From Oscillospiraceae bacterium (lineage in GTDB: Bacteria > Bacillota > Clostridia > Oscillospirales > Ruminococcaceae), in assembly GCA_017461565.1 (NCBI GenBank), contig JAFTXQ010000016.1:40178-104177 (forward strand): a stretch of 64,000 nucleotides of DNA. The letters run 5' to 3'. Positions within the stretch are counted from its first letter, which is position 1; each line of letters starts with the position of its first letter. This document shows positions 22,616-47,058 of the stretch, one piece after another. The notes under the pieces are model-generated. The model did no database searches and had not been told where the DNA came from. It worked only from the letters and a program-made list of their open reading frames with translations. The position numbers and the translations under genes were made by a program.

Positions 22616-22630
22616 AAACGAATAAATAAA

Positions 22631-31079: not shown

Positions 31080-31760
31080 TCATACGGATTTGAGTTGCTG
31101 TGAACTTCTTGCATCTCTCATATAAAAGGTCTTTCCGTGGCCGGGCAGTATTAACGTAGCATCGCTTATACTGTTGAGATAAGGAAGTGTGATCGTTTTG
31201 TATTCTTTTTCACTTCCACCGACAAAACGGGTTATTACGGGCTCGTTCAGTATAAGAGAGTCGCCCGTAGCAACCGTATCGTCATCCAGTTCTATGCAGC
31301 AGCTGCCTTTGGAGTGTCCCGCACAGGATATCATGCGGATGTTATGTCCGTTCCATACTAATTTATACTCGTCGGAAAAGGTTATGTCGGCATTGTAGCG
31401 GTAACCCTGCGGCAGGGTGCGCATGACAGCCTTTAGTTCTTCTGGGGAGTATTTGTTCATCCTGCTTGCCGCAACCACTAAAGGACGGCTGTTTTTTCCG
31501 TTTTTAAGTGATACGGCAGTTTGTTCATGACATATAACAGTGCTTTTAAAAATGCTGCACAGCCATGTAAGCCCCGATGTGTGATCGTAATGCTCGTGAG
31601 TCAGTAGAACAGTCACGTGTTTTACGTTGGCTTTTTCCAGCTGCGAGAGTGCATCTGTACAAACGTGAGGGTCTATCACCAGCGCTTCTTCGTTTTCTGT
31701 CAGTATATACATATTGCTGCCTGCATGGTCAAATATGTATTGCGTTATACTGCTGTGCAT
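31080..31760 (-). CDS. MBL-fold metallo-hydrolase (glyoxalase-II-like; possible thioesterase)
   Basis: 226 aa with the HxHxDH motif LLTHEHYDHTSG and a downstream CAGHSKG. It is the last gene of the minus-strand operon. Confidence 0.8.
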   Translation of the reverse strand: MHSSITQYIFDHAGSNMYILTENEEALVIDPHVCTDALSQLEKANVKHVTVLLTHEHYDHTSGLTWLCSIFKSTVICHEQTAVSLKNGKNSRPLVVAASRMNKYSPEELKAVMRTLPQGYRYNADITFSDEYKLVWNGHNIRMISCAGHSKGSCCIELDDDTVATGDSLILNEPVITRFVGGSEKEYKTITLPYLNSISDATLILPGHGKTFYMRDARSSQQLKSV

Positions 31761-31792
31761 CGATACCCTCCTTTATGCGGAGCTTTGTAATT

Positions 31793-32515
31793 TTATAGAA
31801 TGTTATGCTTGACAAAGGTATGCGCTATATCCTCGATAACATAACCGTTTCTGATCAGATTTCTTATCTGCGCCGGATTGTTGGTGGAAACGTGAGTACT
31901 TACAGATATTCCGCCTCTGGCTTTTACCGCTTCGGGAACCTTTACCACTGTACCTATCCCGCCTTTTCTATACTCTGGATAGATACCTCCCAGAAAGGAT
32001 GTGTATTTTTTTTCTTCGCTTTCTCGGATCGCAAAGAAACCTATCGTATTGTTCTTGTATATGTATTTTATGAATTCTGCGCCCTTTCGGAACTCATCAT
32101 CGATCCAGTTTATATATCTTTTCGCCGCAGAGGCATGGTCAAAAAAAGGGTCGATGTAAACTCTGTCCTTGTCAAACAGCCCGTCTGCTATCTTTTGCTT
32201 TAATAATGCCATATCGCTTTGGTCCATCAATGCGATATCTACCGCATCATACAGACGCTGTTCTATCGGCGAACGTCTGACTTCACTGAGATAGCTTACA
32301 AATTTCACGGAGTCTTCCACATAAGTGTAGCCGCAGCGCTGAATATCGAAAAGGAGATCCGTGCGCTCCGCAGGCACCTTTATTACGCAGTATTCTTTCC
32401 GGATGTCAGACAGTACGGAGCTTACATAGTCTGCGGTATCGCCGCTTTCGATGGTGATCTCACAGGCTTCTACGCCAAGATTGCGCTTTTCCCATACAGC
32501 ATCGACTATTAACAT
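31793..32515 (-). CDS. WecD/RffC-like GNAT N-acyltransferase (dTDP-4-amino-4,6-dideoxygalactose acyltransferase family)
   Basis: Blocks parallel E. coli WecD as I recall it. DAVWEKRNLGVEACEI matches EPLTWENAFFGVNSAIV. RVYIDPFF..AAKRYINWIDDEFRKG matches RF.APWY..SGRFYAQWIENAVRG. GFFAIRE matches GYVSLRE, and NNPAQIRNLIRNGY matches NTAALKRYIQSGA. The GNAT P-loop-like segment is YRKGGIG. Confidence 0.6.
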   Translation of the reverse strand: MLIVDAVWEKRNLGVEACEITIESGDTADYVSSVLSDIRKEYCVIKVPAERTDLLFDIQRCGYTYVEDSVKFVSYLSEVRRSPIEQRLYDAVDIALMDQSDMALLKQKIADGLFDKDRVYIDPFFDHASAAKRYINWIDDEFRKGAEFIKYIYKNNTIGFFAIRESEEKKYTSFLGGIYPEYRKGGIGTVVKVPEAVKARGGISVSTHVSTNNPAQIRNLIRNGYVIEDIAHTFVKHNIL

Positions 32516-32521
32516 ATAATA

Positions 32522-33493
32522 TCACCTCCGTAAATTTGCCAGAACATCTGAGGCTATCTGCTCGGGAGAAAGACCCTGAGTGGTTTCGGTATATTGAACG
32601 CTTCCCGGCATTGGGTAACTGTCGTCTACGCCTATCATTATGTGCAGAGGTCTTGTCAGTTGTCCGCAGTAGTATTCGGCGACTGCGCTTCCAAGTCCTC
32701 CGTGCAGCAGGTGCTCATCTATGGTGGCTATGATCCTGTATCCTCTCAGAGAATCAAGCAGGCTCTTGTCGACAGGGGAAATTGTGTGCATATTTATTAC
32801 GGCAGTTGAAACTCCGTTTTGTTCCAGTACTTCAGCTGCTTTCAGGGCGTTGGCAACTACGCTTCCGCATGAGATAAGCGCAGCGTCGCTTCCGTTTTTT
32901 AGCACGACAGCTTTACCCGGTTCAAATGTGTTATCAGGCTCCTTGTATATTATAGGGAGAGTTTGACCGCCGGTGAGCCTTATATACACAGGACCGTTGA
33001 TGTCGAGAGCTGCGTTGACAGCTTTGTATATTTCTGTTCCGTCGCAAGGTGAGATTATCGTGATACCAGGAATGGCGCGCATGATCGCAATGTCGGGAGG
33101 GTTTGCATGAGAATAACCGAATCTGGATTGCGTAAATCCGCTGTCCATTCCTATGAGCTTTATGTTTGACTGCATATAACCCATAAAATTCCGTATCTGA
33201 TCGGCAGCTCTTACAGCGGCAAACATTGCCCATGATGTGGCGATCACAGGAGTTCCGTCACGTGAAAGTCCTGCGGCGATGCCGATCATATTCTGTTCGG
33301 CTATGCCGACATTGAGATAAGCGTCGGGAAATTCCTTGATGACACGTCCGAAGCCCGAAGCATAAGCAAGATCGGCAGATACCACATACATTTCACGGCC
33401 GTCTTTAAGGCTATCATATACGGCTTGTCCCAGAGCGCCTCTGGCTCCCATACGGGAAAGGAATCTTGCATTTTTAGAGTTCATTTCCAACAA
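32522..33493 (-). CDS. transketolase-family C-terminal subunit (pyrimidine-binding plus C-terminal domains), copy 2
   Basis: It contains FLSRMGARGALGQA...NVGIAEQNMIGIAAGLSRDG and a later GGLGSAVAEY. The start may be the ATG at 33484. It overlaps the preceding gene. Confidence 0.85.
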   Translation of the reverse strand: MLEMNSKNARFLSRMGARGALGQAVYDSLKDGREMYVVSADLAYASGFGRVIKEFPDAYLNVGIAEQNMIGIAAGLSRDGTPVIATSWAMFAAVRAADQIRNFMGYMQSNIKLIGMDSGFTQSRFGYSHANPPDIAIMRAIPGITIISPCDGTEIYKAVNAALDINGPVYIRLTGGQTLPIIYKEPDNTFEPGKAVVLKNGSDAALISCGSVVANALKAAEVLEQNGVSTAVINMHTISPVDKSLLDSLRGYRIIATIDEHLLHGGLGSAVAEYYCGQLTRPLHIMIGVDDSYPMPGSVQYTETTQGLSPEQIASDVLANLRR

Positions 33494-34313
33494 GTCTGCT
33501 CACTTCCTCTCCGGCTTTTTCAAGTTCAGTTCCTTTAAGCGATCTGTCGTGCCATGTGAAGTCGTTTTCAAAAAATGACACGCCCTTGCCCTTGATGGTA
33601 TTGGCTATTATGGCTTTAGGCATACCCTTTTCATTGGAACATGCAAGGGCTTCCGTCAGCTGCTTGCAGCAGTGACCGTCAACTGATATGGTATTCCAGC
33701 CGAAGCTGCAAAGGCGGTCTTTCATTGAGCCGCCTCCTACGATCTCGGAGGTGGGACCATCCGACTGAAGACCGTTGGAATCTATTATCAATGTAAGATT
33801 ATCAAGTCTGTGCTGAGACGCAAACATGAGCGCTTCCCATATCGAGCCTTCGTTCATTTCGCCGTCTCCGACCAGAACATATACTTTATATGGGTAGTTT
33901 TTCCGTTTTGCCGCCAGTGCAAGCCCAGCTCCGTATGACAACCCCAACCCCAGGCTTCCGCCTGAGGTTTCAAAGCCCAATGAGCGATCTGCCTCAAGCA
34001 ATTCCGAGATGATACTGCCATCCTGCTGATATGTTTCAAGCAGCTCATCTGATAACAGGCCCGACAAATTCATTGCTGAATATACAGCCATTGCGGCATG
34101 TCCCTTCGAAAGAAGGAATTTATCCTTATGCATATCGTCAAGTCCTTTATCCTTGACATTGAGAACAGCGCAATACAGTGTCGCCAGTATTTCGGCGCAC
34201 GAAAAAGAGCCGCCCCAATGCATGGGGCCGCTGCTGATCTCTGACATTTCAAGCATTTTTTTTCGCATACTGTTTGCGAACTCATGGCAGATCTGAGCCT
34301 GATCCTTTATCAT
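33474..34313 (-). CDS. transketolase-family N-terminal (ThDP-binding) subunit, copy 2
   Basis: It contains HWGGSFSCAEILATLY...LSKGHAA...VLVGDGEMNEGSIWEALMFASQHRLDNLTLIIDSN, the GDG..N ThDP motif. I prefer the ATG at 34313. Confidence 0.85.
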   Translation of the reverse strand: MIKDQAQICHEFANSMRKKMLEMSEISSGPMHWGGSFSCAEILATLYCAVLNVKDKGLDDMHKDKFLLSKGHAAMAVYSAMNLSGLLSDELLETYQQDGSIISELLEADRSLGFETSGGSLGLGLSYGAGLALAAKRKNYPYKVYVLVGDGEMNEGSIWEALMFASQHRLDNLTLIIDSNGLQSDGPTSEIVGGGSMKDRLCSFGWNTISVDGHCCKQLTEALACSNEKGMPKAIIANTIKGKGVSFFENDFTWHDRSLKGTELEKAGEEVSRLVGNEL

Positions 34314-34328
34314 ATACACACCACCCAA

Positions 34329-35069
34329 TCAGTTTATTCTGCTGTCGATCCTGAAATTCTGACCTGTTATGCATCCTGAGCGTTCCGATGCAAGAAACAG
34401 GATCGTTTCAGCAACCTCGTCGGGTTCTATTTTTCGTTTTACTATATTTGCTGCCATTACATGATCCATTGTCTTTTCGCTGATCATATTGCCCATGTCG
34501 GTGTCCACCGGACCGGGACAGACAGTGTTGACCCTTATGTTAAAGCTGCCGTATTCTGTTGCTAGGCGTTTTGCAGCGCAAAGCACTGCCGCCTTGCTGG
34601 AGCAGTATTCTACATTGCTTCCTGCGTCAAACGCTGCGGACGAAGACACAAATATGATATTGCCGCTGTTGTGTTTTATCATATTTTTTGAAATAAGCTG
34701 TGTAAGTAGCAGCGGAGAAAACAGATTGATCTGAAATACATCCTTTATCCTGCTTATAGGAGTCATGTTGAGCACGCTTTCGGGATACATTACACCTGCG
34801 TTATTTATCAGCAGCGATATCGGGACTTTATGTGACAGTATTTTTTTTGCGCAAGCAGTCACTGAAGCCTCATCGGAAAGATCGCAGCACACGGGTATGA
34901 TCTCTGTGCCGTGCTTTTCGGCGTGTACGATGATATCGGCAAGGGTATCTGAATTACGGACGATGGCAAATATGTTAGCGCCGTTTTCTGTCAGCTTTTC
35001 GGTTACTGCTCTTCCAATGCCTCTGTTGGCACCCGTGACTACCGCATATTTTCCTTCAAATTCTCTCAT
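34329..35069 (-). CDS. short-chain dehydrogenase/reductase (FabG-like ketoreductase), copy 2
   Basis: VVTGANRGIGRA (TGxxxGIG), NNAG and the YCSSKAA catalytic YxxxK are present. Confidence 0.88.
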   Translation of the reverse strand: MREFEGKYAVVTGANRGIGRAVTEKLTENGANIFAIVRNSDTLADIIVHAEKHGTEIIPVCCDLSDEASVTACAKKILSHKVPISLLINNAGVMYPESVLNMTPISRIKDVFQINLFSPLLLTQLISKNMIKHNSGNIIFVSSSAAFDAGSNVEYCSSKAAVLCAAKRLATEYGSFNIRVNTVCPGPVDTDMGNMISEKTMDHVMAANIVKRKIEPDEVAETILFLASERSGCITGQNFRIDSRIN

Positions 35070-35071
35070 TC

Positions 35072-36280
35072 TCAGTAGCTCCCTGTATAAACAAATCTTG
35101 TCATAGCCTCTATCATCTTATATCCATCCCAGATAAACTCCAGTCCCATTGTCTGACCGAGAGGGACTATTCTGTCTACCCCTCTGACACCGTTGTCAAA
35201 GACGAGTTTTTTGATGTCGTCCTTATCGATGCCCAATACGGATATTGTCTGACATTGCTTTGTCAGCACAGGGGCGATCTCACTGATGTCTGAGGCGGTA
35301 TATTCGAAGAAATATCCACCGCTGTTTTTATAGTTCATCAGATCGGCGGACAGTCCGCTGACCTCTGCACGCATAACGTAGTTGTCGTCTGAGATCAGTT
35401 TTATATTGCCGTATTTCATTCCGAGCGCACAGAAGGACGTGTACTTATCTATTGCCTGTATAGGCTTCATGTCGTATTGCTCCTTTACGAGCTTTCCGAG
35501 GGCGCTCCAGAAGCGCTGCTTGGCCTCGTTGACACTGCCGCCTGTCCATACCACAAGGCGTGGGGAACTGCAGGCGTTCTGATCGGTATAGTATGTATCG
35601 GTGTAAAAATCCTTTGCGGTCTTATCTGCGTCGCAGTTCATATATTCGTCGGAATTTATTATCGCAAGCGAGTGGCGGTCGGCAAATGTCATTTCTATTG
35701 CACGAGGCGGCAATGACGCTTTGCGTATCTCACTGATCGTTCTGTCGCCTCCCCAGATTATTCTTATATCGCAGATAGAGGACAGCTGCTGCGTTATTTC
35801 CGCACTGTGGCTGTATCTTAATATGCAAAGGTAAGGCTTCATACAACTGTGTTCGCCGTTCAGCAGTTCATTTATGGCGTCGCATATTATATCCACCTGC
35901 GGGAACTTTTTATCCGATACACGGATGAGCGTGCAGTTTCCGGCAAGAAGCGACGAGGTCATGGATACCGCAAAATTTACAGGCACGTTGGACGGAGCAA
36001 TATGGAATGCCACGCCTCGGCCAATACGTTCATTTTTATCGGTGTGCTTCTGTTTTACATTTTCGAGAGAAGCTTTTCTTATCCAATACGCATAGGAGGT
36101 GATATCTGCGTATTCGTGTGAGCGTTTGTCTCTGATGATCGCTGTTGAAAGAGCCGCCAGAAATCCCACGGCTTTGTCCGAAAACATTCTTAGTGCAGGT
36201 GTTTCCTGCATTTTTTCGATGGTGCCGCAATCGCCTACAAGAAAGTCCATATTATTTGAATTTATCTGCATAGGTATCAC
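35072..36280 (-). CDS. LuxC-family acyl-CoA/acyl-protein reductase (aldehyde-forming), copy 1
   Basis: GVAFHIAPSNVPVNFAVSMTSSLLAGNCTLIRVS, ..IWGGDRTI.. and DQNACSSPRLVVW match the LuxC family pattern. It pairs with a LuxE-like gene. Confidence 0.75.
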   Translation of the reverse strand: MIPMQINSNNMDFLVGDCGTIEKMQETPALRMFSDKAVGFLAALSTAIIRDKRSHEYADITSYAYWIRKASLENVKQKHTDKNERIGRGVAFHIAPSNVPVNFAVSMTSSLLAGNCTLIRVSDKKFPQVDIICDAINELLNGEHSCMKPYLCILRYSHSAEITQQLSSICDIRIIWGGDRTISEIRKASLPPRAIEMTFADRHSLAIINSDEYMNCDADKTAKDFYTDTYYTDQNACSSPRLVVWTGGSVNEAKQRFWSALGKLVKEQYDMKPIQAIDKYTSFCALGMKYGNIKLISDDNYVMRAEVSGLSADLMNYKNSGGYFFEYTASDISEIAPVLTKQCQTISVLGIDKDDIKKLVFDNGVRGVDRIVPLGQTMGLEFIWDGYKMIEAMTRFVYTGSY

Positions 36281-37331
36281 TGCACCCCCTTATCTCGGCG
36301 CTTTTTATTCTTCCTAAGATCTGAATATACTTTCCTTTTCTTCCGCAAGGGCAGTCGTCCTGACCGAGGATGATGCCTTCATCTTCGGTCAGCAGGGAAT
36401 GTCCGGGGTAGGAGTGGGGTAATACAGATACGACCTGAATGATCCCCTTTTCTCCGATACCGCAGGGGGAAAAATCCTTGTAGCTGCGTATTATCACGTC
36501 AGAATAGATGCTTGCGTGAAGATGTCCGCATTCACATTCTGCGTATATGCAGCCTGTCTGCTCCACCATACCGTAGTGATCAAGAAAGTGGCGTATTCCG
36601 CATAGTTCGGTGAAACGGTTTTTGAACTCTTCTCTTGAGATAGCCTGAGCTTCAAGCGTCTTCCAGCCTCCGCCAGTCATGAGAAACGCTTCTGACATAT
36701 CAAGCTTTGTGTCGCTTTTTTTCAGCTCATGATAAAAATGCTGCCAGACCATAAAGGTAAAGCCGAAAATGATAAAGCGCTGTCCGCTGTATTTTTCCAT
36801 AAAATCACGCAGCTTGTCCATGTTTAGCGACATATCATCATTGAGAGCATATACGGTATCTCTTGAGACGATATTCAATCCTATGATAGCTGCGCCACGT
36901 GCGGAAAATTTTGCTCTGTCCTTTATGACGTCCGGTGTGTCGATGACCAGCATTGGCAGTCTTTTGCTGCCCCAGTAATTGCTTAGTATCTTTATCATGG
37001 TCTTCTGCTGCATCATTGCGGTCTCTTTATCGACAAAGATCTTTGAAACGCTTTGTCCTGTGGTGCCTGAGGAGACCATCGTCTTGAAGACATCCTTGCG
37101 GTCAATGCTCATAAGCTCGTATTCCTTGAACATCCTTACAGGAAAGAACGGAATGTCTTCTACCGAGTTTACATTGGTTTTGTCATATCCTACGGATTTG
37201 AGAAAATTATAATAATAACCGCAGCGCTGTGCATGAAGTCCGGTAAGCTCTGTAAGCTCTGCCAGCAGCAACTCGTTTTTTTCCGCAGCGGCAAGAGAAT
37301 ATGGGTCTAGCCTGTAAAAATCATCTATCAT
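36252..37331 (-). CDS. LuxE-family acyl-protein synthetase (adenylate-forming), copy 1
   Basis: IPFFPVRMFKEYEL...SSGTTGQSVSKIF...GGGWK...HYGMVEQTG matches the LuxE pattern. The start at 37331 (MIDDFYRL) forms an ATGA overlap with the upstream stop. Confidence 0.75.
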   Translation of the reverse strand: MIDDFYRLDPYSLAAAEKNELLLAELTELTGLHAQRCGYYYNFLKSVGYDKTNVNSVEDIPFFPVRMFKEYELMSIDRKDVFKTMVSSGTTGQSVSKIFVDKETAMMQQKTMIKILSNYWGSKRLPMLVIDTPDVIKDRAKFSARGAAIIGLNIVSRDTVYALNDDMSLNMDKLRDFMEKYSGQRFIIFGFTFMVWQHFYHELKKSDTKLDMSEAFLMTGGGWKTLEAQAISREEFKNRFTELCGIRHFLDHYGMVEQTGCIYAECECGHLHASIYSDVIIRSYKDFSPCGIGEKGIIQVVSVLPHSYPGHSLLTEDEGIILGQDDCPCGRKGKYIQILGRIKSAEIRGCSDTYADKFK

Positions 37332-38305
37332 CAGCTGTGCCTCAATTCGTTGATTATTCTGTCGGCGATCTGCGTGTCGGTCAGTCCCTTCTGTTCCCAA
37401 ACATAGCGCTGAGATCCGGCTTCGGCAAAGCCATCGGGGAAGCCTATGAACACCTGACGGGGAGTATTGGCAAGCGTTGCTTTGTATTCTGCCACGGCGC
37501 TGCCCATTCCGCCTATGGTATTGTGTTCTTCGACGGTAACGATAAGATCGTTTTCTGCAAATATGTCATCCAGTGTGCTGCGGTCGATCGGTTTTATCGT
37601 GTGCATATTATATACGGAACATTCCACGCCTTTTTCAGCAAGAAGCTCTGCTGCTTTCATGGACTCCGCCACCATAAGACCTGTAGCGATTATTGCTGTT
37701 CTTCCCGCTTTACGCAGGCAGACCATTCTTCCTGCCTTGAAATCATAATCCTCGGTATATACGACAGGGCAATTCAATCCGCCACTCAGACGAATATATA
37801 CAGGGGTATCTGTATTGGCTGCATATTCAGCCATTTTTATCGCTTCAAAGCTATCTGCTGCGGAAAGCACAGTGAGATTAGGGAGTGCACGCATAAACGC
37901 CATATCCTCTGTCGCCCAATGTGAGACGCCTGATTTTGCTGCGACTACTCCTGCTGCAGAACCAACTATTTTTACGTTGCATCCGAGATGAGACAGATGC
38001 TGCCTGATATGCTCAAGGCTTCTTACAGCTATAAAGGAGGCGTAGGTGGTAGCGAAAACGCAGTCTCCGTCCATGGCAAGCCCTGCGGCTATGCCTATCA
38101 TGTTCTGTTCGGCAATGCCTGTGTTCAGGAACTTTTCGGGATGCGCCTTTATAAATCTGTCCATTCCTGAAAGAAGCGCAAGGTCGGCGGTCAGCAGCTT
38201 GACATTGTTTTTTTCTGAAGCTATTTCGGGCATTGCAATTCCGAAAAAAGCGCCTCTTTGTCCCAGCCTTGCCCAGGTCCTGATGTTTGCGGATGTTATA
38301 TTCAT
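37331..38305 (-). CDS. transketolase-family C-terminal subunit, copy 1
   Basis: It contains IRTWARLGQRGAFFGIA...NTGIAEQNMIGIAAGLAMDG...GGMGSAVAEY. Confidence 0.85.
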   Translation of the reverse strand: MNITSANIRTWARLGQRGAFFGIAMPEIASEKNNVKLLTADLALLSGMDRFIKAHPEKFLNTGIAEQNMIGIAAGLAMDGDCVFATTYASFIAVRSLEHIRQHLSHLGCNVKIVGSAAGVVAAKSGVSHWATEDMAFMRALPNLTVLSAADSFEAIKMAEYAANTDTPVYIRLSGGLNCPVVYTEDYDFKAGRMVCLRKAGRTAIIATGLMVAESMKAAELLAEKGVECSVYNMHTIKPIDRSTLDDIFAENDLIVTVEEHNTIGGMGSAVAEYKATLANTPRQVFIGFPDGFAEAGSQRYVWEQKGLTDTQIADRIINELRHS

Positions 38306-39869: not shown

Positions 39870-39926
39870 GTTTCCCTCCTGAGGCTGTTGATATGCCGTG
39901 ATATGCACAAAATACTATACATATAT

Positions 39927-39955
39927 ATCATAAACTAAACGACTGTTTTTGTCAA
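39927..39955 (-). promoter_or_regulatory. near-consensus sigma-A promoter of the minus-strand operon (SDR to MBL)
   Basis: Minus strand: TTGACA (39955-39950), 17 nt, TATGAT (39932-39927). Confidence 0.6.
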
Positions 39956-40021
39956 TAGATTTATTTGGCCTGCGGCTTGTAAGCACCCGTTGTGCGTGGC
40001 GCTGCAAGTGTGCTCGTGTGC

Positions 40022-40050
40022 TTGACAAATACGGTGTGCTGTTGTATAAT
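40022..40050 (+). promoter_or_regulatory. consensus sigma-A promoter of the plus-strand operon (wecE to the ArnF-like gene)
   Basis: TTGACA (40022-40027), 17 nt, TATAAT (40045-40050), exact. Confidence 0.65.
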
Positions 40051-40143
40051 AAAACAAATATACCTATGATCCCTGCGATGCTTTTTGTGAAAGTTATCAT
40101 ACCGGTGTTAAGGGGTAGTAAGTACAACTCAGGAGGTGTGACA

Positions 40144-41274
40144 ATGATTCCGTTCAATGTGCCTCCCCGCACAGGCAGGGAGGAGGAATATGTAGCACAG
40201 GCGATAAACTCCGGAAAGATATGCGGCAACGGCAGGTTTACAAAGGAATGCACCGAGTGGCTAGAAAGCAAGACGGGCTGTCGCAGGGTACTTATGACTA
40301 CGTCCTGTACACATGCGTTGGAAATGGCGGCGATACTTGCTGATATAAAGCCCGGCGATGAGGTGATAATGCCCTCATACACCTTTGTTTCCACCGCAAA
40401 TGCATTTGTAATGCGTGGCGCAGTGCCGGTTTTTGTGGATATCAGACCTGACACTATGAATATCGACGAACAGCTTATTGAGGACGCTGTTACACCAAAA
40501 ACCAAGGCGATCGTTCCCGTGCATTATGCGGGAGTGGGCTGCGAAATGGATGTTATTCTTGATATCGCACGCCGCCATGATCTGATCGTAGCAGAAGATG
40601 ATGCGCAGGGATTGATGGCATCATACAAGGGTAAGCCCCTTGGTACTTTTGGTGCTGTCGGTTGTGTCAGCTTCCATGAGACCAAAAATTATTCCATGGG
40701 CGAGGGCGGCGCTCTCCTGATAAATGACGAGTCGCTTATTGAGCGTGCTGAGATAGTGTGGGAAAAAGGAACAAACCGCAGCAGATTTCTGCGTGGGCAG
40801 ATAGATAAGTACACCTGGGTGGACTGCGGTTCTTCTTATCTTCCGAGCGAGCTTTGTGCGGCATATCTGATACCACAGCTTGAGGATGCGGACAAGATAA
40901 ATGAAGCACGTCTTGCTTGCTGGCGGATGTATTATGACATTCTTACGCCTCTTTCGGAAAAAGGATTTATCGAACTTCCGTTCGTACCGAAGCACTGTAC
41001 ACACAATGCCCATATGTTCTATATAAAAACAAAGGATATCGAAGAGCGTACAGCACTGATTGCACATCTGAAGGAACATGACGTGATGTCTGTTTTCCAT
41101 TATGTACCGCTTCATTCTGCCGAGGTGGGAAGAAGAGTCGGGCGTTTCAACGGCGAGGACCGATATACTACACATGAAAGCGAAAGACTGCTGAGGTTGC
41201 CTATGTATTATGGCCTTAAGACGGAGCATATAGATGAGGTGTGCCGTATCATAGCTGATTTTTACAGCAGATAG
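40144..41274 (+). CDS. wecE: dTDP-4-amino-4,6-dideoxygalactose (dTDP-4-keto-6-deoxyglucose) transaminase, DegT/WecE family
   Basis: MIPFNVPPRTGREEEYVAQAINSGKICGNG.FT..C..WLE...LMTTSCTHALEMAA.L.DIKPGDEVIMPSYTFVSTANAFV.RGA.PVFVD.RPDTMNIDE..., then SFHETKNY (PLP lysine) and EKGTNRS.F.RGQ.DKYTW.D.GSSYL. This is nearly colinear with E. coli WecE as I recall it. The start at 40144 follows AGGAGGTG. Confidence 0.85.
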   Translation: MIPFNVPPRTGREEEYVAQAINSGKICGNGRFTKECTEWLESKTGCRRVLMTTSCTHALEMAAILADIKPGDEVIMPSYTFVSTANAFVMRGAVPVFVDIRPDTMNIDEQLIEDAVTPKTKAIVPVHYAGVGCEMDVILDIARRHDLIVAEDDAQGLMASYKGKPLGTFGAVGCVSFHETKNYSMGEGGALLINDESLIERAEIVWEKGTNRSRFLRGQIDKYTWVDCGSSYLPSELCAAYLIPQLEDADKINEARLACWRMYYDILTPLSEKGFIELPFVPKHCTHNAHMFYIKTKDIEERTALIAHLKEHDVMSVFHYVPLHSAEVGRRVGRFNGEDRYTTHESERLLRLPMYYGLKTEHIDEVCRIIADFYSR

Positions 41275-41308
41275 AACGATAGATTTGATTGATGCTGCGA
41301 GGTGAACT

Positions 41309-42718
41309 ATGGATTTTTATAATGACATAGAAAGATATGGCAGCCGTATTGCCGTTATAACGGACAGTGGAAAAAGTTATTCCTATAAGGAGCTTGCCGA
41401 GGCGGCGGATGCTTCGGCTGTGGCTGTGCCTCCTCGTTCGCTGGTGTTCCTTGTGTGCGAAAATTGCTTTGAGTCAATAGCCGCATATATAGGATTTCTG
41501 CGGAAACGGGCGGTGCCTGTACTTGTTAACCCCAAGATAGATGATGAGATGAAATCGGTGCTTCTTGAGAAGTATCGTCCGCAATATATTTTCTGCCCGT
41601 CGGGTTGGATAAAGTGTGATGACAGTGTTTTTCGTCTGAATGACCATGTCCTTATTGCAACGGAAAACGCTGAGCTTCATCCCATGGATGCGGAGCTTGC
41701 TGTAATGATAACCACATCGGGCAGCACCGGCAGCCCAAAGCTTGTTATGCAGAGCTATAAAAACATCAGTTCAAACGCAGGCTCCATTGCCGAGTATCTT
41801 GAAATACGCAGTGATGACAGAGCGATTACTACCATGCCGATGAGCTATACCTATGGCTTGTCCATAATACAATCCCATCTGCTTATGGGTGCTGCTGTTA
41901 TCGCAACAGAAAAAACCTTAATGGATAAGGGCTTCTGGTCGTTGATGAAGGAGCAGGGTGCTACCACCTTCGGCGGAGTGCCTTATATTTATGAAATGCT
42001 TAAAAGGCTTCGTTTCGGCAGGATGGATATTCCGTCACTGCGTTATATCACGCAGGCAGGCGGAAAGCTTTCCAGAGAGCTGGCGCTGGAATTTTCGGAG
42101 ATATGCCGTGATAAGGGCATAAAGCTTATCGTTATGTATGGACAGACTGAGGCTACTGCAAGGATGGCGTATCTTCCGTGGGAGTACGCCTTTTCAAAGG
42201 CGGGTAGTATGGGTATTCCCATCCCCGGCGGCAGAATGAGGCTCATCGGTGACGACGGCGCCGAAATAACACAGCCTGATATTGTTGGCGAACTTATATA
42301 TGAGGGCGAAAATGTCACTTTGGGATATGCGCTGTCATGGAGCGACCTTGCAAACGGCGACAGCCGAAACGGAATACTGTATACGGGAGACATGGCAAAA
42401 CGTGATGCAGATGGCTTCTATACCATTGTAGGCCGAAAAAAGCGTTTTCTCAAGCTTTTCGGAAACAGGGTTAATCTTGACGAAGCAGAGGCAATGCTTA
42501 ATAAGGAAGGCTATAAATGCGTCTGTGCAGGCAGAGATGACCTTATGAAGATATATATCGAGCAATGTGACGCAGCCGCATCAAAGAATGCGACGGAATA
42601 TATCAGCGGCAGGCTGGGATTGCACCATTCTGCTTTCAAGACTATCGCAATAGACACTATCCCTCGCAGCGAGTCGGGAAAAGTGATGTACTCAAAGCTG
42701 GAGGAGCTTTATGGTTGA
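41309..42718 (+). CDS. ANL-superfamily adenylate-forming ligase (acid--ACP/CoA ligase)
   Basis: The AMP-binding core motif is MITTSGSTGSPKLV, followed later by YGQTE, YTGDMAKRDADGFY and GRKKRFLK. Confidence 0.85.
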   Translation: MDFYNDIERYGSRIAVITDSGKSYSYKELAEAADASAVAVPPRSLVFLVCENCFESIAAYIGFLRKRAVPVLVNPKIDDEMKSVLLEKYRPQYIFCPSGWIKCDDSVFRLNDHVLIATENAELHPMDAELAVMITTSGSTGSPKLVMQSYKNISSNAGSIAEYLEIRSDDRAITTMPMSYTYGLSIIQSHLLMGAAVIATEKTLMDKGFWSLMKEQGATTFGGVPYIYEMLKRLRFGRMDIPSLRYITQAGGKLSRELALEFSEICRDKGIKLIVMYGQTEATARMAYLPWEYAFSKAGSMGIPIPGGRMRLIGDDGAEITQPDIVGELIYEGENVTLGYALSWSDLANGDSRNGILYTGDMAKRDADGFYTIVGRKKRFLKLFGNRVNLDEAEAMLNKEGYKCVCAGRDDLMKIYIEQCDAAASKNATEYISGRLGLHHSAFKTIAIDTIPRSESGKVMYSKLEELYG

Positions 42719-43796
42719 TTATGGTGAAATACTGAATATCCCTCCATATTCCATGCAGAGGGAAGAAAAGCACAGCTTTCTGACGGATATACTGAAAGAG
42801 CTTTCGCTGTTTCATTACGATAATTGTCCCGAGTATAAACGTGTGATCGATGGATTGGGAGTAAAGCTTTCTGACATAACAAGCTTCTGCGATATCCCTT
42901 TTCTTCCGGTTCGCCTGTTCAAGGAGTATGACCTCAGGAGCGTAGGCGGAGAGAACATCACAAAGACGATGACATCGTCAGGTACGACCGGGCAGCAGGT
43001 CTCCAGAATATATCTGGATAAAGAGACTTCGGCAAACCAGACGAAGGCGCTGACTAAAATAGTAGGCTCTTATATAGGGAGCACACGTCTGCCTATGATA
43101 ATACTTGATACATCGGCAGTGGTAAAGGACCGAAAGATGTTTTCCGCCAGAGGAGCAGGTATACTCGGCTTTCAGATGTTCGGACGTGATAAGATATACG
43201 CTCTGGACGAGGCGATGAAGCTGGATATCGAGGGTCTGAGTGCTTTTCTGGAAAAGCACAGTGGCGAGAAGATACTTCTTTTCGGTTTTACTTTTATGAT
43301 ATGGCAGCATTTTTATGAGGAACTCAAGAAAAGCGGATATCGTCCCGATCTTTCCAATGGTATTCTGATCCACGGTGGTGGTTGGAAAAAGCTCGCTGAT
43401 AAGAAGGTCTCACAGGAGGAATTCAAATGCCTGCTGAATGAGGTGTGCGGTATACAGCAAGTATATGATTATTACGGAATGGTAGAGCAGACGGGCACTA
43501 TCTATATGGAGTGCGAATGCGGACATCTCCATGCCAGCATTTTTTCGGATGTTATCGTTCGCCGTCCGCATGATTTTTCGGTGTGCGGCTATGGAGAAAA
43601 GGGACTTGTTGAGGTAGTGTCGATATTGCCTGCGTCCTATCCGGGACATGCTCTTCTTACTGAAGATGAGGGTGTTATACTTGGCGAGGATGATTGCCCC
43701 TGTGGAAGAAAGGGTAAGTATTTTTCAATCCTCGGACGCATCAAAAACGCTGAAATAAGGGGGTGCAGTGATACCTATGCCGATAAGTTCAGATAA
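42711..43796 (+). CDS. LuxE-family acyl-protein synthetase, copy 2
   Basis: It is colinear with 36252..37331 (IPFLPVRLFKEYDL, SSGTTGQQVSRIY, GGGWK, YYGMVEQTG, the shared C-terminus RIKNAEIRGCSDTYADKF). It overlaps the ligase gene by 8 nt. Confidence 0.75.
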   Translation: MVDYGEILNIPPYSMQREEKHSFLTDILKELSLFHYDNCPEYKRVIDGLGVKLSDITSFCDIPFLPVRLFKEYDLRSVGGENITKTMTSSGTTGQQVSRIYLDKETSANQTKALTKIVGSYIGSTRLPMIILDTSAVVKDRKMFSARGAGILGFQMFGRDKIYALDEAMKLDIEGLSAFLEKHSGEKILLFGFTFMIWQHFYEELKKSGYRPDLSNGILIHGGGWKKLADKKVSQEEFKCLLNEVCGIQQVYDYYGMVEQTGTIYMECECGHLHASIFSDVIVRRPHDFSVCGYGEKGLVEVVSILPASYPGHALLTEDEGVILGEDDCPCGRKGKYFSILGRIKNAEIRGCSDTYADKFR

Positions 43797-44979
43797 GGTG
43801 CAGGTGTTATGTGGCTGTAATGACCTTGATGCTATGACTGCACAGTGTGCACTGCCGCCATTCAGCAAAGTTGTATGCGAATTTTTTTCAGCGCTGTCTG
43901 CGGAAATAATGAAGCATCCTGAAGCAAAACAGTATCCTGATGTTGTCACATTCGGCTTTTTTTGCCGAAGGGGAAATATTCAGCGCCTTAAGGATGAGTA
44001 TTCCGATAAGATATCAAACAGGCTGGGACGTGGTGTATCGTTTCATATCGCACCGTCAAATGTGCCGATAAATTTTGCATACAGTCTTGCCGCTGCACTT
44101 CTGGCAGGAAACAGCTGCATCGTGCGAGCTTCGTCAAAGGGCTTCAGACAGATCGGGCTTGTTTGCGAATGTATACAGAACACCATAAGCCTGGTGGAGT
44201 TCAGAGAGATCGCTTCACGCATTTCTGTGATATGCTACGAAAGAAGCAGGGAGATAAATGACCGGCTTTCGGCGCTTGCGGATGTGCGTATAATCTGGGG
44301 CGGAGACGCAACGGTTACGGAACTGAGGAGCTCTCCTCTTTCTCCGAGAGCTGTTGATATAGCTTTTGCTGACAGATATTCACTTGCGGTGATGGACGCC
44401 CGTGCAGTGATCGATACGGCTGATCTGAAAAGGCTTGCACAGGATTTTTATAATGATACGTATCTTTACGATCAGAACGCCTGCTCATCTCCACGGCTTG
44501 TCTATTGGCTGGGTGATAATGAGGATACGGCATCCGCTGCTGAGCTTTTCTGGGAGGCTGTACATAAGGAGGCTGCGGCGAGATATCACATTGAGCCTGT
44601 TGTTGCGGTGGATAAGTATACAGAGGCATGTCGCATGGCGATAGAGCACAATGCCGATATACGATCGGGCAAGGATAACCTGATAAGCCGTATTGTGGTA
44701 GACAGCCTTTCTGCCGATCTGCCTGACCATCGCTGTGCAGGCGGCAGCTTTATCGAATATCATAGCAGCTCGCTTGATGCGCTTAAGACGATAGTTACGA
44801 AAAAATATCAGACGCTTTCGTATTTCGGAGTTGACAGGCAGACGCTTATGCAGTTTGTTGTCGGCAATGGACTGAGCGGTATAGACCGCATCGTTCCGAT
44901 AGGAAAAACTGCAGATTTTTCGCTTGTCTGGGATGGATACGATCTTATAATGCAGATGTCGAGAGTGATCGGCTTCTGA
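43768..44979 (+). CDS. LuxC-family acyl-CoA/acyl-protein reductase, copy 2
   Basis: It is colinear with 35072..36280 (GVSFHIAPSNVPINFAYSLAAALLAGNSCIVRAS, IWGGDATV, DQNACSSPRLVYW). The real start may be the ATG at 43777. Confidence 0.75.
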   Translation: MIPMPISSDKVQVLCGCNDLDAMTAQCALPPFSKVVCEFFSALSAEIMKHPEAKQYPDVVTFGFFCRRGNIQRLKDEYSDKISNRLGRGVSFHIAPSNVPINFAYSLAAALLAGNSCIVRASSKGFRQIGLVCECIQNTISLVEFREIASRISVICYERSREINDRLSALADVRIIWGGDATVTELRSSPLSPRAVDIAFADRYSLAVMDARAVIDTADLKRLAQDFYNDTYLYDQNACSSPRLVYWLGDNEDTASAAELFWEAVHKEAAARYHIEPVVAVDKYTEACRMAIEHNADIRSGKDNLISRIVVDSLSADLPDHRCAGGSFIEYHSSSLDALKTIVTKKYQTLSYFGVDRQTLMQFVVGNGLSGIDRIVPIGKTADFSLVWDGYDLIMQMSRVIGF

Positions 44980-45006
44980 ATACAAAAATAACGGAGGTTA
45001 ACAATT

Positions 45007-45243
45007 ATGACAAATCTGGAGATCTATAATAACGCTTTTAAGGAAGCATTCGAAGTGGATGAGGCTCAGCTTGCAGGCCTTGAATATCAGGGTATTGCCG
45101 CATGGGACAGTGTAGGCCACATGAACCTTATCGCTCTTCTCGAGGATGCTTTTGATATCATGATGGATACCGATGATATCATTGATCTCAGCTCTTATGA
45201 AAAGGGCAAGGAGATAATGGCTAAATATGAAAAGAATATCTGA
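45007..45243 (+). CDS. acyl carrier protein (phosphopantetheine attachment)
   Basis: 78 aa and acidic. The serine attachment motif is AWDSVGHMNLIALLEDAF. Confidence 0.8.
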   Translation: MTNLEIYNNAFKEAFEVDEAQLAGLEYQGIAAWDSVGHMNLIALLEDAFDIMMDTDDIIDLSSYEKGKEIMAKYEKNI

Positions 45244-45270
45244 TAAGAGAAGGGAGCAGGGGGATGCGGT

Positions 45271-46239
45271 ATGAGTACTCTGCTTAGCTTTGTTATCCCG
45301 TGCTATCGCAGTGAGCTTACAATAGAAATGGTCGTTAATGAGATCATCGAAACTGTTTCACAGCGTGACGGGTATGATTACGAGATAATATGCGTCAACG
45401 ATTTTTCGCCTGATGGAGTATACAGCGTCCTTGAAAGGCTTGCGGCTGAAAATAAGAGGATCAAGGTCGTGGATTTTGCAAGGAACATGGGAAAGCACGC
45501 TGCTGTACTGGCAGGTTATGCCCGTGCAAGCGGCGATTATATCGTAAATCTTGACGATGATTTTCAATGCCCTGTATATGAACTGTGGCGGCTTCTTGAA
45601 CCGCTCGAAAAGGATGAATGTGATTTCGCAACAGCGAATTATAACCGCAAAAAGCAGTCGGGCTTCAAAAATTTCGGAAGCACGATCAATCTTATGATGG
45701 CTTCCGTGATGCTTGAAAAGCCTATGTCGCTGCGCTTTGAGAATTTCAGTATCATGCGTAGGTTCGTTGTGGAAGAGATCGTGAAATATGATAAGCCATA
45801 TCCTTATCTTGAGGGTCTTGTATATCGTGTTACCCGCCGTATTTCTGTGGTGATGATGGAAGAAAGAGAGCGTGGCGATAATAAAAAGACAGGGTTTACA
45901 TTCGGCAAGTCGCTTTCGCTGTGGCTGAATGGTTTCACGGCTTTTTCGGTAAAACCGCTGAGGATATCATCGTTTCTTGGAGCCTTTATTTCTGTTTTCG
46001 GATTTATTGTCGGCGCTGTCATGGTAATAAGAAAGCTTATATATCCTGAGGTGCAGGCGGGTTATACCTCGCTTATTGCCGCTGTCCTTTTTATTGGCGG
46101 TCTGGTGCTTATGGTGCTGGGGCTTATCGGAGAGTATGTCGGCAGAATATATATATGCCTTAACAATACTCCTCAGTATGTTGTGAAACGGACGATAAAT
46201 CTTGAAGAAAAAAGTAATAGTTCACTCATCGGAAATTGA
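45271..46239 (+). CDS. polyprenyl-phosphate glycosyltransferase, GT2 (ArnC/GtrB/DPM1-like), with two C-terminal TM helices
   Basis: It contains FVIPCYRSE...ICVNDFSPDG...NMGKHAAVLAGY..ASGDYIVNLDDDFQ and a C-terminus LIGEYVGRIY....PQYVV. This is the same layout as E. coli ArnC (..LLGEYIGRIY...PRYFV). Confidence 0.8.
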   Translation: MSTLLSFVIPCYRSELTIEMVVNEIIETVSQRDGYDYEIICVNDFSPDGVYSVLERLAAENKRIKVVDFARNMGKHAAVLAGYARASGDYIVNLDDDFQCPVYELWRLLEPLEKDECDFATANYNRKKQSGFKNFGSTINLMMASVMLEKPMSLRFENFSIMRRFVVEEIVKYDKPYPYLEGLVYRVTRRISVVMMEERERGDNKKTGFTFGKSLSLWLNGFTAFSVKPLRISSFLGAFISVFGFIVGAVMVIRKLIYPEVQAGYTSLIAAVLFIGGLVLMVLGLIGEYVGRIYICLNNTPQYVVKRTINLEEKSNSSLIGN

Positions 46240-46275
46240 ATTTGTTGAGAGGGCTTTTACGGAAAGCAGCATGAT

Positions 46276-46632
46276 ATGTTAAAAAAAATAGGACCCTATC
46301 TGCTTTTGCATCTTGTGCTGATCATCAGCACAATTGGTGGTATCTTTTCAAAGCTGGCTTCGAAGCAGCCTTTTTTCTCGTTTGAGTTCTGCTTGTTTTA
46401 TGGGTTGCTCCTGCTATCGCTTGGCGTTTACGCCATCTTATGGCAGCAGGTGTTGAAGCTTCTGCCACTTAATCTCGCATACGCAAACAAGGGCGTAACG
46501 ATTATATGGGGAATGCTCTGGGGTGTGCTGTTTTTCAGCGAAAGCGTTTCTTTGAGCAATATAATAGGTGCGGCAGTTGTTCTGGGCGGTGTTATCCTTA
46601 TGACGTGGGATGGTGAAAAGAAGCATGAGTGA
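46276..46632 (+). CDS. small 4-TM EamA/SMR-like membrane protein (ArnE-like putative flippase subunit)
   Basis: 118 aa with four hydrophobic helices. It lies immediately downstream of the ArnC-like GT2 and overlaps the next small membrane gene. Confidence 0.65.
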   Translation: MLKKIGPYLLLHLVLIISTIGGIFSKLASKQPFFSFEFCLFYGLLLLSLGVYAILWQQVLKLLPLNLAYANKGVTIIWGMLWGVLFFSESVSLSNIIGAAVVLGGVILMTWDGEKKHE

Positions 46633-46975
46633 GCTGTTTGTTTATTCTGCGATAATGCTTGTCAGTATCCTTATATCTGCTGTGTCTCAGATAATGCTGA
46701 AGAAAAGTGCACAGAAGACCTATCCATCAAAGCTGAAAGAGTATCTTAATCCGATAGTGATAACAGCGTATATCCTCTTTTTCGGGTGCAGTTTTATCAC
46801 TATGTATGCGCTTAAAGTCGTGCCGCTGTCTATGTATTCTATAATTGAATCCTGTGGATATATTTTTGTTGCGGTATTGAGCTTTTTTTTCCTTAAAGAA
46901 AAGCTTACAAAGCGGCAGCTTGCAGGAATGGCACTGATAATCATCGGCATAGCAATATACTCAATAGAAATATAA
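46625..46975 (+). CDS. small 4-TM EamA/SMR-like membrane protein (ArnF-like putative flippase subunit)
   Basis: About 116 aa from the ATG at 46625, an 8-nt overlap with the previous gene. It has four hydrophobic helices and ends [24 protein letters not shown]. Confidence 0.65.
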   Translation: MSELFVYSAIMLVSILISAVSQIMLKKSAQKTYPSKLKEYLNPIVITAYILFFGCSFITMYALKVVPLSMYSIIESCGYIFVAVLSFFFLKEKLTKRQLAGMALIIIGIAIYSIEI

Positions 46976-47058
46976 CAGAAAATACGATATGATCGTTTTG
47001 TGGAGCGTTTGCTTTGCGATATCAGTACGTATTGTCGGATGAATTCTAATACCACGCA

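Follow-up and report, generated by a model that had tools for sequence, protein, structure and literature searches.

In the Arn pathway, a 4-amino sugar nucleotide, the product of a DegT-type aminotransferase, receives an N-acyl group in the cytoplasm; a family 2 glycosyltransferase (GT2) then moves the sugar to undecaprenyl phosphate, and an SMR-like pair of small membrane proteins flips it. In Vibrio cholerae O1, a route to the 3-deoxy-L-glycero-tetronyl N-acyl group of perosamine has been proposed from sequence (Morona et al. 1995 Gene 166:19, cited in PMC12208996), with RfbL as the ligase and RfbK as the carrier. In Aeromonas group II and in Enterobacteriaceae, islands for flagellin glycosylation also contain genes for an acyl carrier protein (ACP), FabG, an AMP-forming ligase, LuxE, and LuxC, whose product two papers guessed to be a lipid (PMC7874193, PMC4875605). 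Here we describe a locus that combines features of these systems in a 64,000-nucleotide stretch of an Oscillospiraceae bacterium (contig JAFTXQ010000016.1), hereafter the window. Its 18 genes are predicted to specify sugar amination, carrier loading, two LuxE/LuxC pairs, two split transketolase (TK)-like enzymes, an acyltransferase, and a lipid-linked export module. We posit, with somewhat more conviction than doubt, that its product is a 4-amino-4,6-dideoxyhexose with an N-acyl group assembled on a carrier system of its own, and that this sugar is exported on undecaprenyl phosphate. The repurposed thiamine diphosphate (ThDP) carboligase modules are the new element; a carrier-built N-acyl decoration of an amino sugar and its lipid-linked export are of a known kind.

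In the proposed mechanism, RmlA and RmlB would produce dTDP-4-keto-6-deoxyglucose and WecE would aminate it at C4, steps for which sequence or fold speaks. The ANL (AMP-forming) ligase may load a small di- or tricarboxylic acid on the 78-aa ACP, its recognizable partner by sequence and fold. Each LuxE/LuxC pair would turn a free carboxylate into an aldehyde, a TK-like ThDP enzyme would add a two-carbon unit to give an α-hydroxyketone, and a short-chain dehydrogenase/reductase (SDR) would reduce the new ketone; two such rounds would yield a polyhydroxylated, sugar-acid-like acyl chain. The WecD-like enzyme, named for its modeled fold, could then move the ACP-bound chain onto dTDP-4-amino-4,6-dideoxyhexose, while carrier thioesters would be edited or released by the metallo-β-lactamase (MBL)-fold hydrolase, a task that may fall to a type II thioesterase elsewhere among the loci. 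The GT2 is predicted to transfer the acylated sugar to undecaprenyl phosphate and the ArnE/F-like SMR pair to flip it outward, in line with their sequences; a GT-C enzyme encoded elsewhere (YfhO in relatives) would finally place the sugar on a surface protein or on a wall polymer such as teichoic acid. What we infer in this scheme is the chemistry of the product and the nature of its acceptor.

The locus represents one form of a modular cassette that is widespread among gut, rumen, and oral anaerobes of several phyla. LuxE1 has at least 8000 candidate homologs, the best 120 among the matches listed being 71–95% identical. A scan of one genome per species gave a comparison set of 77 loci, onto all of which the window proteins were mapped and whose neighboring genes were all clustered; gene-order counts were taken over 78 loci. 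The carriers are Lachnospiraceae, Oscillospiraceae, Ruminococcaceae, Selenomonas, Centipeda, Succinivibrio, Succinatimonas, and one alphaproteobacterial assembly. Their conserved core runs SDR, TK-N, TK-C, LuxE, LuxC, followed by ACP, ANL ligase, LuxE, LuxC. LuxC1 follows LuxE1 in 76 of 78 loci, and the order SDR-TKN-TKC-LuxE1 is kept in 53; the ACP, the ANL ligase, and the second LuxE/LuxC pair are present in most loci. A minimal form free of TK genes (SDR-LuxE-LuxC-ACP-ANL-LuxE-LuxC) occurs in Selenomonas, Centipeda, and Lacrimispora. The full set with two TK pairs, as in the window, is shared by locus L004 and by Hominifimenecus sp. rT4P-3 (L023), a cultured bacterium. Flintibacter muris DSM 110149 is another cultured carrier of the cassette. 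Anaerobutyricum hallii has a close version, one of whose WecD-like proteins occurs in 3641 assembly-index blocks. In contigs of A. hallii type (L085/L086, 1–13616), a prevalent human gut commensal, the genes read LuxE-LuxC-SDR-TKN-TKC-TKN-TKC-ACP-ANL-LuxE-LuxC-WecD-like-397-aa protein-GT2-thioesterase; beyond them come genes for a large Amidase_3 wall protein and for a cysteine peptidase of lectin-like type.

What varies among the relatives bears on the chemistry. The second module consists of an SDR with a second TK pair in 13 loci and of an SDR with an acetolactate synthase (ALS)-like ThDP enzyme in 26; in addition, 16 loci hold an HMGL-family, DmpG-like aldolase, whose best matches are 4-hydroxy-2-oxovalerate aldolases, and 8 hold an HpcH/HpaI-type aldolase. 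The ALS-like enzyme and both aldolases all form carbon–carbon bonds on aldehyde acceptors. Because the enzymes that are swapped in or added accept aldehydes, and LuxE/LuxC make aldehydes from carboxylates, these exchanges lend the proposed scheme further support.

The cassette occurs in two sugar contexts: with WecE, a WecD-like acyltransferase, GT2, and an SMR pair, as in the window, or with a module containing NeuB and a PglD-like transferase. The WecD-like gene is present in 26 loci, often with WecE, GT2, and the SMR pair. The PglD-like hexapeptide acyltransferase is present in 18 and NeuB in 18, nine of them shared; a CMP-sugar synthetase and FkbM methyltransferases recur as well, and together these genes are typical of a nonulosonic-acid pathway. 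No locus has both the WecD-like and the PglD-like acyltransferase. The predicted acyltransferase type tracks the predicted sugar type, and this mutual exclusion is the strongest comparative argument that the product of the cassette is an N-acyl group on an amino sugar. In Selenomonas infelix ATCC 43532 (L078, 4463–17358), the minimal TK-free cassette lies inside a nonulosonic-acid locus in the order PglD-like, FabA-like dehydratase, SDR, NeuB, LuxE, LuxC, ACP, ANL, LuxE, LuxC, Vat-like hexapeptide transferase, GT2, DegT.

The identity of the amino sugar in the window rests on WecE, which exceeds the equivalog cut-offs of two NCBIfam models in end-to-end alignments (TIGR02379, 632.6 bits against 434.85; NF008687, 630.4 against 375). 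The two models differ on the configuration of the product, so the choice between a galacto and a gluco dTDP-amino sugar is left undecided. A role for WecE as the transaminase of a LuxC-derived aldehyde was rejected, as its score as a sugar aminotransferase equivalog is too strong. The predicted source of its substrate, RmlA and RmlB, is encoded about 20 kb away in the window, and homologs of both lie in the 10-kb flanks of the cassette in several relatives; neither rmlC nor rmlD was seen among the annotated open reading frames (ORFs) of the window. Directly downstream of rmlA-rmlB and on the same strand, positions 7868–9097 (minus) encode a Polysacc_deac_1 deacetylase. Since ArnD, the Arn-pathway deformylase, belongs to the same family, this protein could trim the N-acyl group off the lipid-linked sugar, or it could be unrelated.

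The acyltransferase was recognized from its fold. The protein has no Pfam match, and a sequence search against the PDB returned chance matches only, which made a fold search necessary; against the NCBIfam WecD model it aligns over its full length with 38 bits, under the cut-off of 219. An AlphaFold2 (AF2) model built with 40 homologs (pLDDT 94.6) has E. coli WecD (2FS5) as its top Foldseek match (E 7.5e-15, TM 0.74/0.80), and in this model the two-domain GNAT protein of the locus shares the WecD fold. Its gene lies inside the cassette operon, adjoining TKC2 here and the ACP gene in relatives.

Could the acyl cassette and the sugar-export genes adjoin and yet act separately? The ANL ligase and the ACP would then work in the manner of DltA and DltC and deliver a small acid as an ester to a wall polymer, or else the cassette would yield an aldehyde or polyol that stays free; WecE, GT2, and the SMR pair would export an amino sugar that is simply N-acetylated. 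The two halves of the locus are indeed separate operons, and in many relatives the flanks that were sampled around the cassette lack WecE, GT2, or SMR genes. Amino-acid adenylation domains are a further match of the ligase (141.7 bits), and E. coli WecD uses acetyl-CoA. We nevertheless judge such a division of labor unlikely: in the loci sampled, the cassette usually lies beside amino-sugar genes of one of the two classes and the acyltransferase type switches with that class, the WecD-like gene is embedded in the cassette operon, and the Pfam scan of window ORFs turned up neither a DltB- nor a DltD-like gene.

Support for an acyl chain extended by carboligation comes from the TK-like enzymes. 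Each is split between two genes, TKN2 being 43% identical to TKN1 and TKC2 41% to TKC1. The solved structure closest to TKC1 is the split TK of Carboxydothermus hydrogenoformans (6YAJ, 204.9 bits), with which (6YAJ/6YAK) the locus enzymes share the two-gene architecture and the ThDP catalytic residues. Both pairs were aligned with E. coli TktA, whose numbering is used here, and compared with 6YAJ; the family alignment holds 73 subunits of each type, TKN and TKC, from related loci. The residues that serve ThDP, the metal, and catalysis (H26, H66, D155, N185, H261, E411, H473) are retained in nearly all 73 subunits per type, and H100 is replaced by Tyr in TKN1 and by Leu in TKN2 in the family alignment. 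In the yeast and E. coli TK structures, R358, H461, and R520 hold the substrate phosphate and D469 reads the C2 hydroxyl. In TKC1, H461 is Ser, R520 is Gly, and D469 is Ser or Lys depending on the alignment; in TKC2, R520 is likewise Gly, H461 is Asp, and D469 is lost, aligning to Phe or Arg, again depending on the alignment. Family-wide, Gly stands in place of R520 in 71 of 73, the position of H461 is taken by Ser, Ala, or Asp and that of D469 by Ser or Phe, and R358 is kept only in part. Unlike this clade, with its family-wide replacement of H461, D469, and R520 relative to 6YAJ/6YAK, 6YAJ and human TK retain the sugar-phosphate and C2-hydroxyl residues. Judged from these alignments, the TK-like enzymes are a diverged clade, other than ordinary transketolases, and since the residues that bind phosphate and the C2 hydroxyl have been lost, they have probably moved to non-phosphorylated substrates. 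The window also encodes, at 59435–62697, a polyprenyl synthase and a full-length DXS (DXP_synthase_N, 354 bits), the latter an internal contrast to the diverged TK-like genes.

The ThDP enzymes might instead act on the sugar, branching a keto-sugar nucleotide by two carbons in the manner of YerE before an SDR reduces the product, with LuxE, LuxC, and ACP making a simpler acyl group separately. YerE, an enzyme of yersiniose synthesis, belongs to the ALS-like class of ThDP enzymes and adds a two-carbon branch to a keto-sugar; an enzyme of this class replaces the second TK pair in the 26 loci noted above, keto-sugar intermediates occur in both sugar contexts, and L004 contains a hexose 2,3-dehydratase and a GFO-type reductase, which points to sugar tailoring beside the cassette. 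Yet the TK module holds a fixed position between SDR and LuxE/LuxC in the 53 loci that keep the order, and it is found with two chemically different sugar classes, in the WecD-like context in 18 loci and in the NeuB context in 8, which argues against its action on a particular keto-sugar. A YerE-type branching would, moreover, consume the C4 keto group that WecE requires, and the aldolases added in relatives use free aldehydes. We find this route quite improbable. The first-pass annotation had offered as products either a polyhydroxy-acyl group or a C2-branched or extended sugar; the acyl group is favored and the branched sugar disfavored, because the TK module follows LuxE/LuxC whatever the sugar context.

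The LuxE and LuxC proteins retain the cysteines expected of carboxylate activation and reduction enzymes of the Lux type (7XC6). LuxE2 is 57% identical to LuxE1, and both end in an RGCSD motif; its Cys349 in LuxE1 stands 10 residues from the end and matches Cys364 of Photobacterium LuxE, which is equally far from its own end, and the C-terminal Cys is invariant in all 115 homologs compared. LuxC2 is 40% identical to LuxC1, and both carry an NACSSP motif whose cysteine (Cys237 in LuxC1) is invariant in 107 of 107 homologs; we take it as the catalytic acylated cysteine, the putative counterpart of the Photobacterium residue. Unlike the Lux system, the locus comes with neither LuxD nor a luciferase, as no LuxD or luxAB family was detected in the Pfam-scanned ORFs of the window. 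Against the NCBIfam equivalog models for the long-chain enzymes, LuxE scores 84 bits (cut-off 550) and LuxC 56 (cut-off 750), and the substrates of the Lux-like enzymes here are likely short polar acids rather than myristate.

The remaining cassette proteins are those of carrier loading, ketoreduction, and thioester hydrolysis. The nearest solved stand-alone relatives of the ANL ligase are malonyl-, oxalyl-, succinylbenzoyl-, and 4-hydroxybutyryl-CoA ligases, which act on small (di)carboxylic acids, and its gene adjoins that of the ACP in most loci. The ACP, which has more than 6000 homologs, carries Ser35 in an invariant WDSVGHM motif, aligned to Ser36 of E. coli AcpP; its AF2 model is a four-helix bundle (pLDDT 88.7), and all 50 of the top 50 fold matches are ACPs, with TM up to 0.84. 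SDR2 is 38% identical to SDR1; both score best against FabG models, and SDR1 stays under every equivalog cut-off. The MBL-fold protein, which may serve as a thioesterase or in editing, is present in 6 loci besides this one, whereas 10 loci have a type II thioesterase. That the cassette makes a fatty acyl group, giving the “liposugar” raised in the flagellin-island papers (PMC7874193, PMC4875605), would fit annotations that read as fatty-acid enzymes and the FabG-like SDRs, but we consider it very improbable, given that neither a ketosynthase nor an enoyl reductase was seen in the locus or among recurrent neighbor families, that the LuxE and LuxC scores fall so far below the long-chain cut-offs, that the nearest stand-alone ligases take small (di)carboxylic acids, and that the enzymes added in relatives are carboligases and aldolases rather than chain-elongating synthases.

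The export half is recognizable at the family level. The GT2 domain spans residues 6–170 and is followed by hydrophobic C-terminal helices at 229–247 and 261–279; the best NCBIfam match is PgfS (155 bits), ahead of ArnC (136 bits), both under their cut-offs. The two SMR genes overlap by 23 nt and encode proteins with three to four (a) and four (b) hydrophobic helices. GT2 and the WecD-like gene occur together in 15 of the 18 loci that have a GT2, and SMR genes are confined to GT2 loci (7 of 7). YfhO directly adjoins the cassette in five relatives (L004, L019, L027, L031, L062), which supports lipid-linked export to a surface acceptor, and polytopic membrane proteins that lack an assigned family flank it in three loci (L023, L040, L047). 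Giant membrane proteins of about 2000 aa with 28–29 predicted hydrophobic segments adjoin the cassette in L027 (2–6016) and L031 (2–5818); the former has a YfhO domain (432 bits), and the latter clusters with it.

Several points weigh against the carrier-built N-acyl sugar that we favor. No GT-C or YfhO was detected in the 64-kb window by YfhO tblastn and Pfam. The 880-aa protein at 11885–14527 was considered as a GT-C and rejected, having one hydrophobic segment and lacking YfhO similarity; the remaining large ORFs of the window are housekeeping genes. GT2 enzymes of this class are not known to take a dTDP-sugar as donor. The starter acid, the two-carbon donor, and the order of steps are guesses, and two LuxE/LuxC pairs together with a ligase imply either three carboxylates or an extension unit that brings one, while no gene that would obviously supply an extra carboxylate, such as the aldolase seen in relatives, was found in the window. 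Specificities are unreadable from names, because WecD, ArnC, ArnE, LuxE, LuxC, and PgfS all score far under their equivalog cut-offs. Finally, many comparison loci lie on incomplete contigs, and the co-occurrence counts are lower bounds for this reason.

A broader proposal can be made tentatively, and we hold it to be possible rather than probable: that the cassette is a new kind of assembly line, which starts from a simple carboxylic acid, uses no sugar precursors, and ends in a polyhydroxy chain resembling a sugar, destined for the N-acyl groups of surface amino sugars in major gut commensals such as A. hallii. It would work by iterated LuxE/LuxC activation and reduction, carbon–carbon bond formation on the aldehyde by a TK-like enzyme, an ALS-like enzyme, or a pyruvate aldolase, and ketoreduction, and the exchange of modules between species would make the structure strain-variable and recognizable by host or phage.

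The features of the locus are collected below. The first-pass annotation, in describing 18 tightly packed, overlapping genes that radiate from back-to-back near-consensus promoters, was accurate: the ORF map contains all 18, 10 on the minus strand (31080–39869) and 8 on the plus strand (40144–46975), with intergenic distances of −29 to +36 nt and 7 overlapping junctions, and the promoter pair gave the strongest sigma-70 matches in a 17-kb scan, the plus-strand site being the best. Its family assignments also stood, Pfam identifying SDR, TK, LuxE, LuxC, MBL, DegT, AMP-binding, GT2, and EamA members and fold identifying the WecD-like protein and the ACP. The rfbA and rfbB genes it placed at 9.1–11.0 kb are rmlA and rmlB, and its ArnC/ArnEF-like export module was borne out by Pfam, the NCBIfam ArnC and ArnE matches being under cut-off. 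The start of wecE was moved from 39949 to the ATG at 40144, which follows an AGGAGG ribosome-binding site. That correction, and the SDR1 start at 39869, came from intergenic reading; gene calls on the source scaffold, scaffold_35 of the metagenome assembly ERZ28654512, slightly shifted the starts of LuxE1 (37331), LuxC1 (36271), TKN2 (34319), and TKC2 (33451).

Features of the locus and its predicted sugar-supply genes, in window coordinates
Feature	Position	Strand	Basis
rmlB	9143-10162	-	GDP_Man_Dehyd/Epimerase 293 bits
rmlA	10159-11037	-	NTP_transferase 242 bits
MBL-fold hydrolase	31080-31760	-	Lactamase_B 54 bits, partial GloB-like match
WecD-like two-domain GNAT, proposed N-acyltransferase onto the 4-amino sugar	31793-32515	-	AF2/Foldseek fold
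TKC2, C-terminal half of TK-like enzyme 2	32522-33451	-	Transket_pyr + Transketolase_C
TKN2, ThDP-binding half of TK-like enzyme 2	33474-34319	-	Transketolase_N 108.5 bits
SDR2, second FabG-like reductase, module 2	34329-35069	-	SDR family (Pfam)
LuxC1, acyl-thioester reductase-like, predicted aldehyde-forming	35072-36271	-	LuxC 98.9 bits
LuxE1, acyl-protein synthetase-like adenylating enzyme	36252-37331	-	LuxE 174 bits; 7XC6 LuxE 84.5 bits
TKC1, pyrimidine-binding/C-terminal half of TK-like enzyme 1	37331-38305	-	Transket_pyr + Transketolase_C
TKN1, ThDP-binding half of TK-like enzyme 1	38302-39144	-	Transketolase_N 108.8 bits
SDR1, FabG-like reductase, proposed ketoreductase of module 1	39141-39869	-	adh_short_C2 197 bits
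Promoter, minus operon	39955-39927	-	TTGACA-17-TATGAT, 11/12 consensus, 58 nt 5' of SDR1 start
Promoter, plus operon	40022-40050	+	TTGACA-17-TATAAT, 12/12 consensus
WecE, dTDP-4-keto-6-deoxyglucose 4-aminotransferase	40144-41274	+	DegT; equivalog-level
ANL (AMP-forming) ligase, proposed ACP loader	41309-42718	+	AMP-binding 175.8 bits
LuxE2, second acyl-protein synthetase-like enzyme	42711-43796	+	LuxE 181.6 bits
LuxC2, second predicted aldehyde-forming reductase	43768-44979	+	LuxC 111.3 bits
ACP, 78 aa	45007-45243	+	AF2 fold + motif
GT2, polyprenyl-phosphate type (ArnC/GtrB/PgfS-like)	45271-46239	+	Glycos_transf_2 101.9 bits
SMR/EamA membrane protein a (ArnE/F-like flippase half)	46276-46632	+	ArnE 32 bits, under cut-off
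SMR/EamA membrane protein b (second flippase half)	46610-46975	+	EamA 46.4 bits
Terminator-like hairpin, end of plus operon	47058-47081	+	10-bp stem, then TTTTATGTTT

The plus operon has a leader of about 90 nt between its promoter and the wecE ATG; an Rfam scan of the whole window, this leader included, matched no family, so the leader holds no known riboswitch. No tRNA genes were found in the window. From the flanks through the locus the GC content stays level, and plasmids searched by megablast with the 16-kb locus yielded no match; because of the even GC and because no mobility genes were seen, a mobile-element or plasmid origin of this copy was rejected. The locus proteins find their nearest relatives in assemblies of Ruminiclostridium, Lachnospiraceae, and Oscillospiraceae, which marks the host as an uncultured clostridial bacterium. 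After the MBL gene, gene calling on the source scaffold gave a 79-aa ORF (30819–31058, minus strand), which was considered as a second carrier protein and rejected as lacking the carrier motif; having neither that motif nor a family match, it may be spurious.

Elsewhere in the window lie housekeeping genes and the genes of a GH9-CBM3 cellulase, a CotH/lamin-tail protein, and a chemoreceptor. A separate, second glycopolymer cluster at 11885–25058 resembles a teichoic-acid or phosphocholine-type system. It holds the 880-aa protein discussed above, which is soluble, has no Pfam match, and shows TagF-like motifs, together with a cytidylyltransferase+GFO fusion, LicD, a 788-aa NTP-transferase+SHMT-like fusion, a GT2, and two FkbM methyltransferases; a gene on the other strand specifies a 741-aa protein that ends in a citrate-lyase-ligase (CitC) domain. 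The interval that separates the two glycan clusters encodes, at 25589–28636 (minus strand), a 1015-aa protein with three lamin-tail domains and Fn3-associated, chitobiase-C, and CotH kinase domains.

The proteins of this widespread cassette are annotated only as generic enzymes or as “hypothetical.” If our proposal is correct, the wall polymers, surface proteins, or flagellin of many abundant commensals bear a decoration that has escaped description and varies between strains, and decorations of this kind often govern immune recognition, phage adsorption, and colonization. It would likewise add a TK-like clade with non-phosphorylated substrates, and a logic that leads from carboxylate through aldehyde to an extended chain, with potential use in biocatalysis. 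The LuxE/LuxC “fatty acid” genes of flagellin glycosylation islands, a long-standing puzzle, would also gain from the model an explanation that can be tested.

How, then, does the locus stand among known systems? To the Arn pathway (ArnB, ArnC, ArnE/ArnF, ArnT) it is alike in pathway logic and at the family level only: the equivalog scores are 196 bits for ArnB (cut-off 631), 136 for ArnC (529), and 32 for ArnE (92), with a fourth score of 22 (99), and a Pfam scan found no ArnA, ArnD, or ArnT in the locus. It differs in its sugar, a dTDP-6-deoxyhexose rather than UDP-arabinose, in the acyl group, presumably complex rather than formyl, and in its host, which belongs to the Gram-positive-type Clostridia. 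With the GT2-GtcA-YfhO systems of CsbB/GtlA and with Streptococcus mutans PgfS it shares a GT2 with two C-terminal helices, PgfS being the best NCBIfam match; unlike CsbB/GtcA/YfhO, its flippase is an SMR/EamA pair rather than a member of the GtrA/GtcA family, the window has no YfhO, and the sugar would be an N-acylated 4-amino-4,6-dideoxyhexose in place of glucose, galactose, or GlcNAc. By its profile scores, the export half is an orthologue of neither Arn nor CsbB/GtcA/YfhO nor Pgf. The dTDP-Fuc4NAc branch of enterobacterial common antigen is matched by an equivalog-level WecE and by the presence of RmlA and RmlB; its WecD has a fold in common with the GNAT protein here, the profile score (38 bits) falling short of the cut-off (219).

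Searches of the accessible literature found no pathway that combines TK-like enzymes with LuxE/LuxC in a glycan, Clostridia, or Lachnospiraceae context; the first-pass annotation, too, knew of none described that adds two split transketolases and doubles the LuxE/LuxC and SDR genes. The QncN/QncL glycolyl-ACP system joins a split TK to an E2-like lipoyl/acyltransferase and an ACP; a route of this type was rejected, since no lipoyl/2-oxoacid dehydrogenase acyltransferase family is present in the locus.

The flagellin islands have the same five families beside amino-sugar genes, in their case those of pseudaminic acid, and the minimal cassette of S. infelix likewise lies among NeuB, PglD-like, and DegT genes. 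Unlike the window, however, the islands have one LuxE/LuxC pair and no TK-like genes, and the window version is tied to a dTDP-sugar and lipid-carrier export, not to flagellar or pse genes. The flagellin-glycan derivative of Aeromonas group II is reportedly 376 Da, and the residue mass of di-N-acetyl pseudaminic acid is 316; by simple arithmetic, the difference of 60 Da would correspond to a dihydroxybutyryl group in place of an acetyl, and dihydroxybutyryl is also the acyl of the V. cholerae tetronate.

The resemblance to the V. cholerae O1 RfbKLMNO set lies in a carrier, an AMP-forming ligase, and an acyltransferase that together would put a short hydroxy-acyl group onto a 4-amino-6-deoxy sugar. 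In the Vibrio set, RfbN is a LuxC/LuxE-like reductase and RfbM an alcohol dehydrogenase. Compared by functional class, the genes match those of RfbKLMNO, with an SDR in place of the iron alcohol dehydrogenase and a GNAT in place of RfbO. The Vibrio set has one LuxC/LuxE-like gene and an iron alcohol dehydrogenase, works on GDP-perosamine, and serves an O-antigen rather than a single sugar exported on undecaprenyl phosphate; ThDP enzymes, present here, are lacking there. The analogy drawn in the first-pass annotation is sound in its carrier and ligase logic, although the pathway it invokes as precedent has itself only been proposed from sequence. In that logic, the V. cholerae O1 tetronate route appears to be the nearest precedent for the locus.

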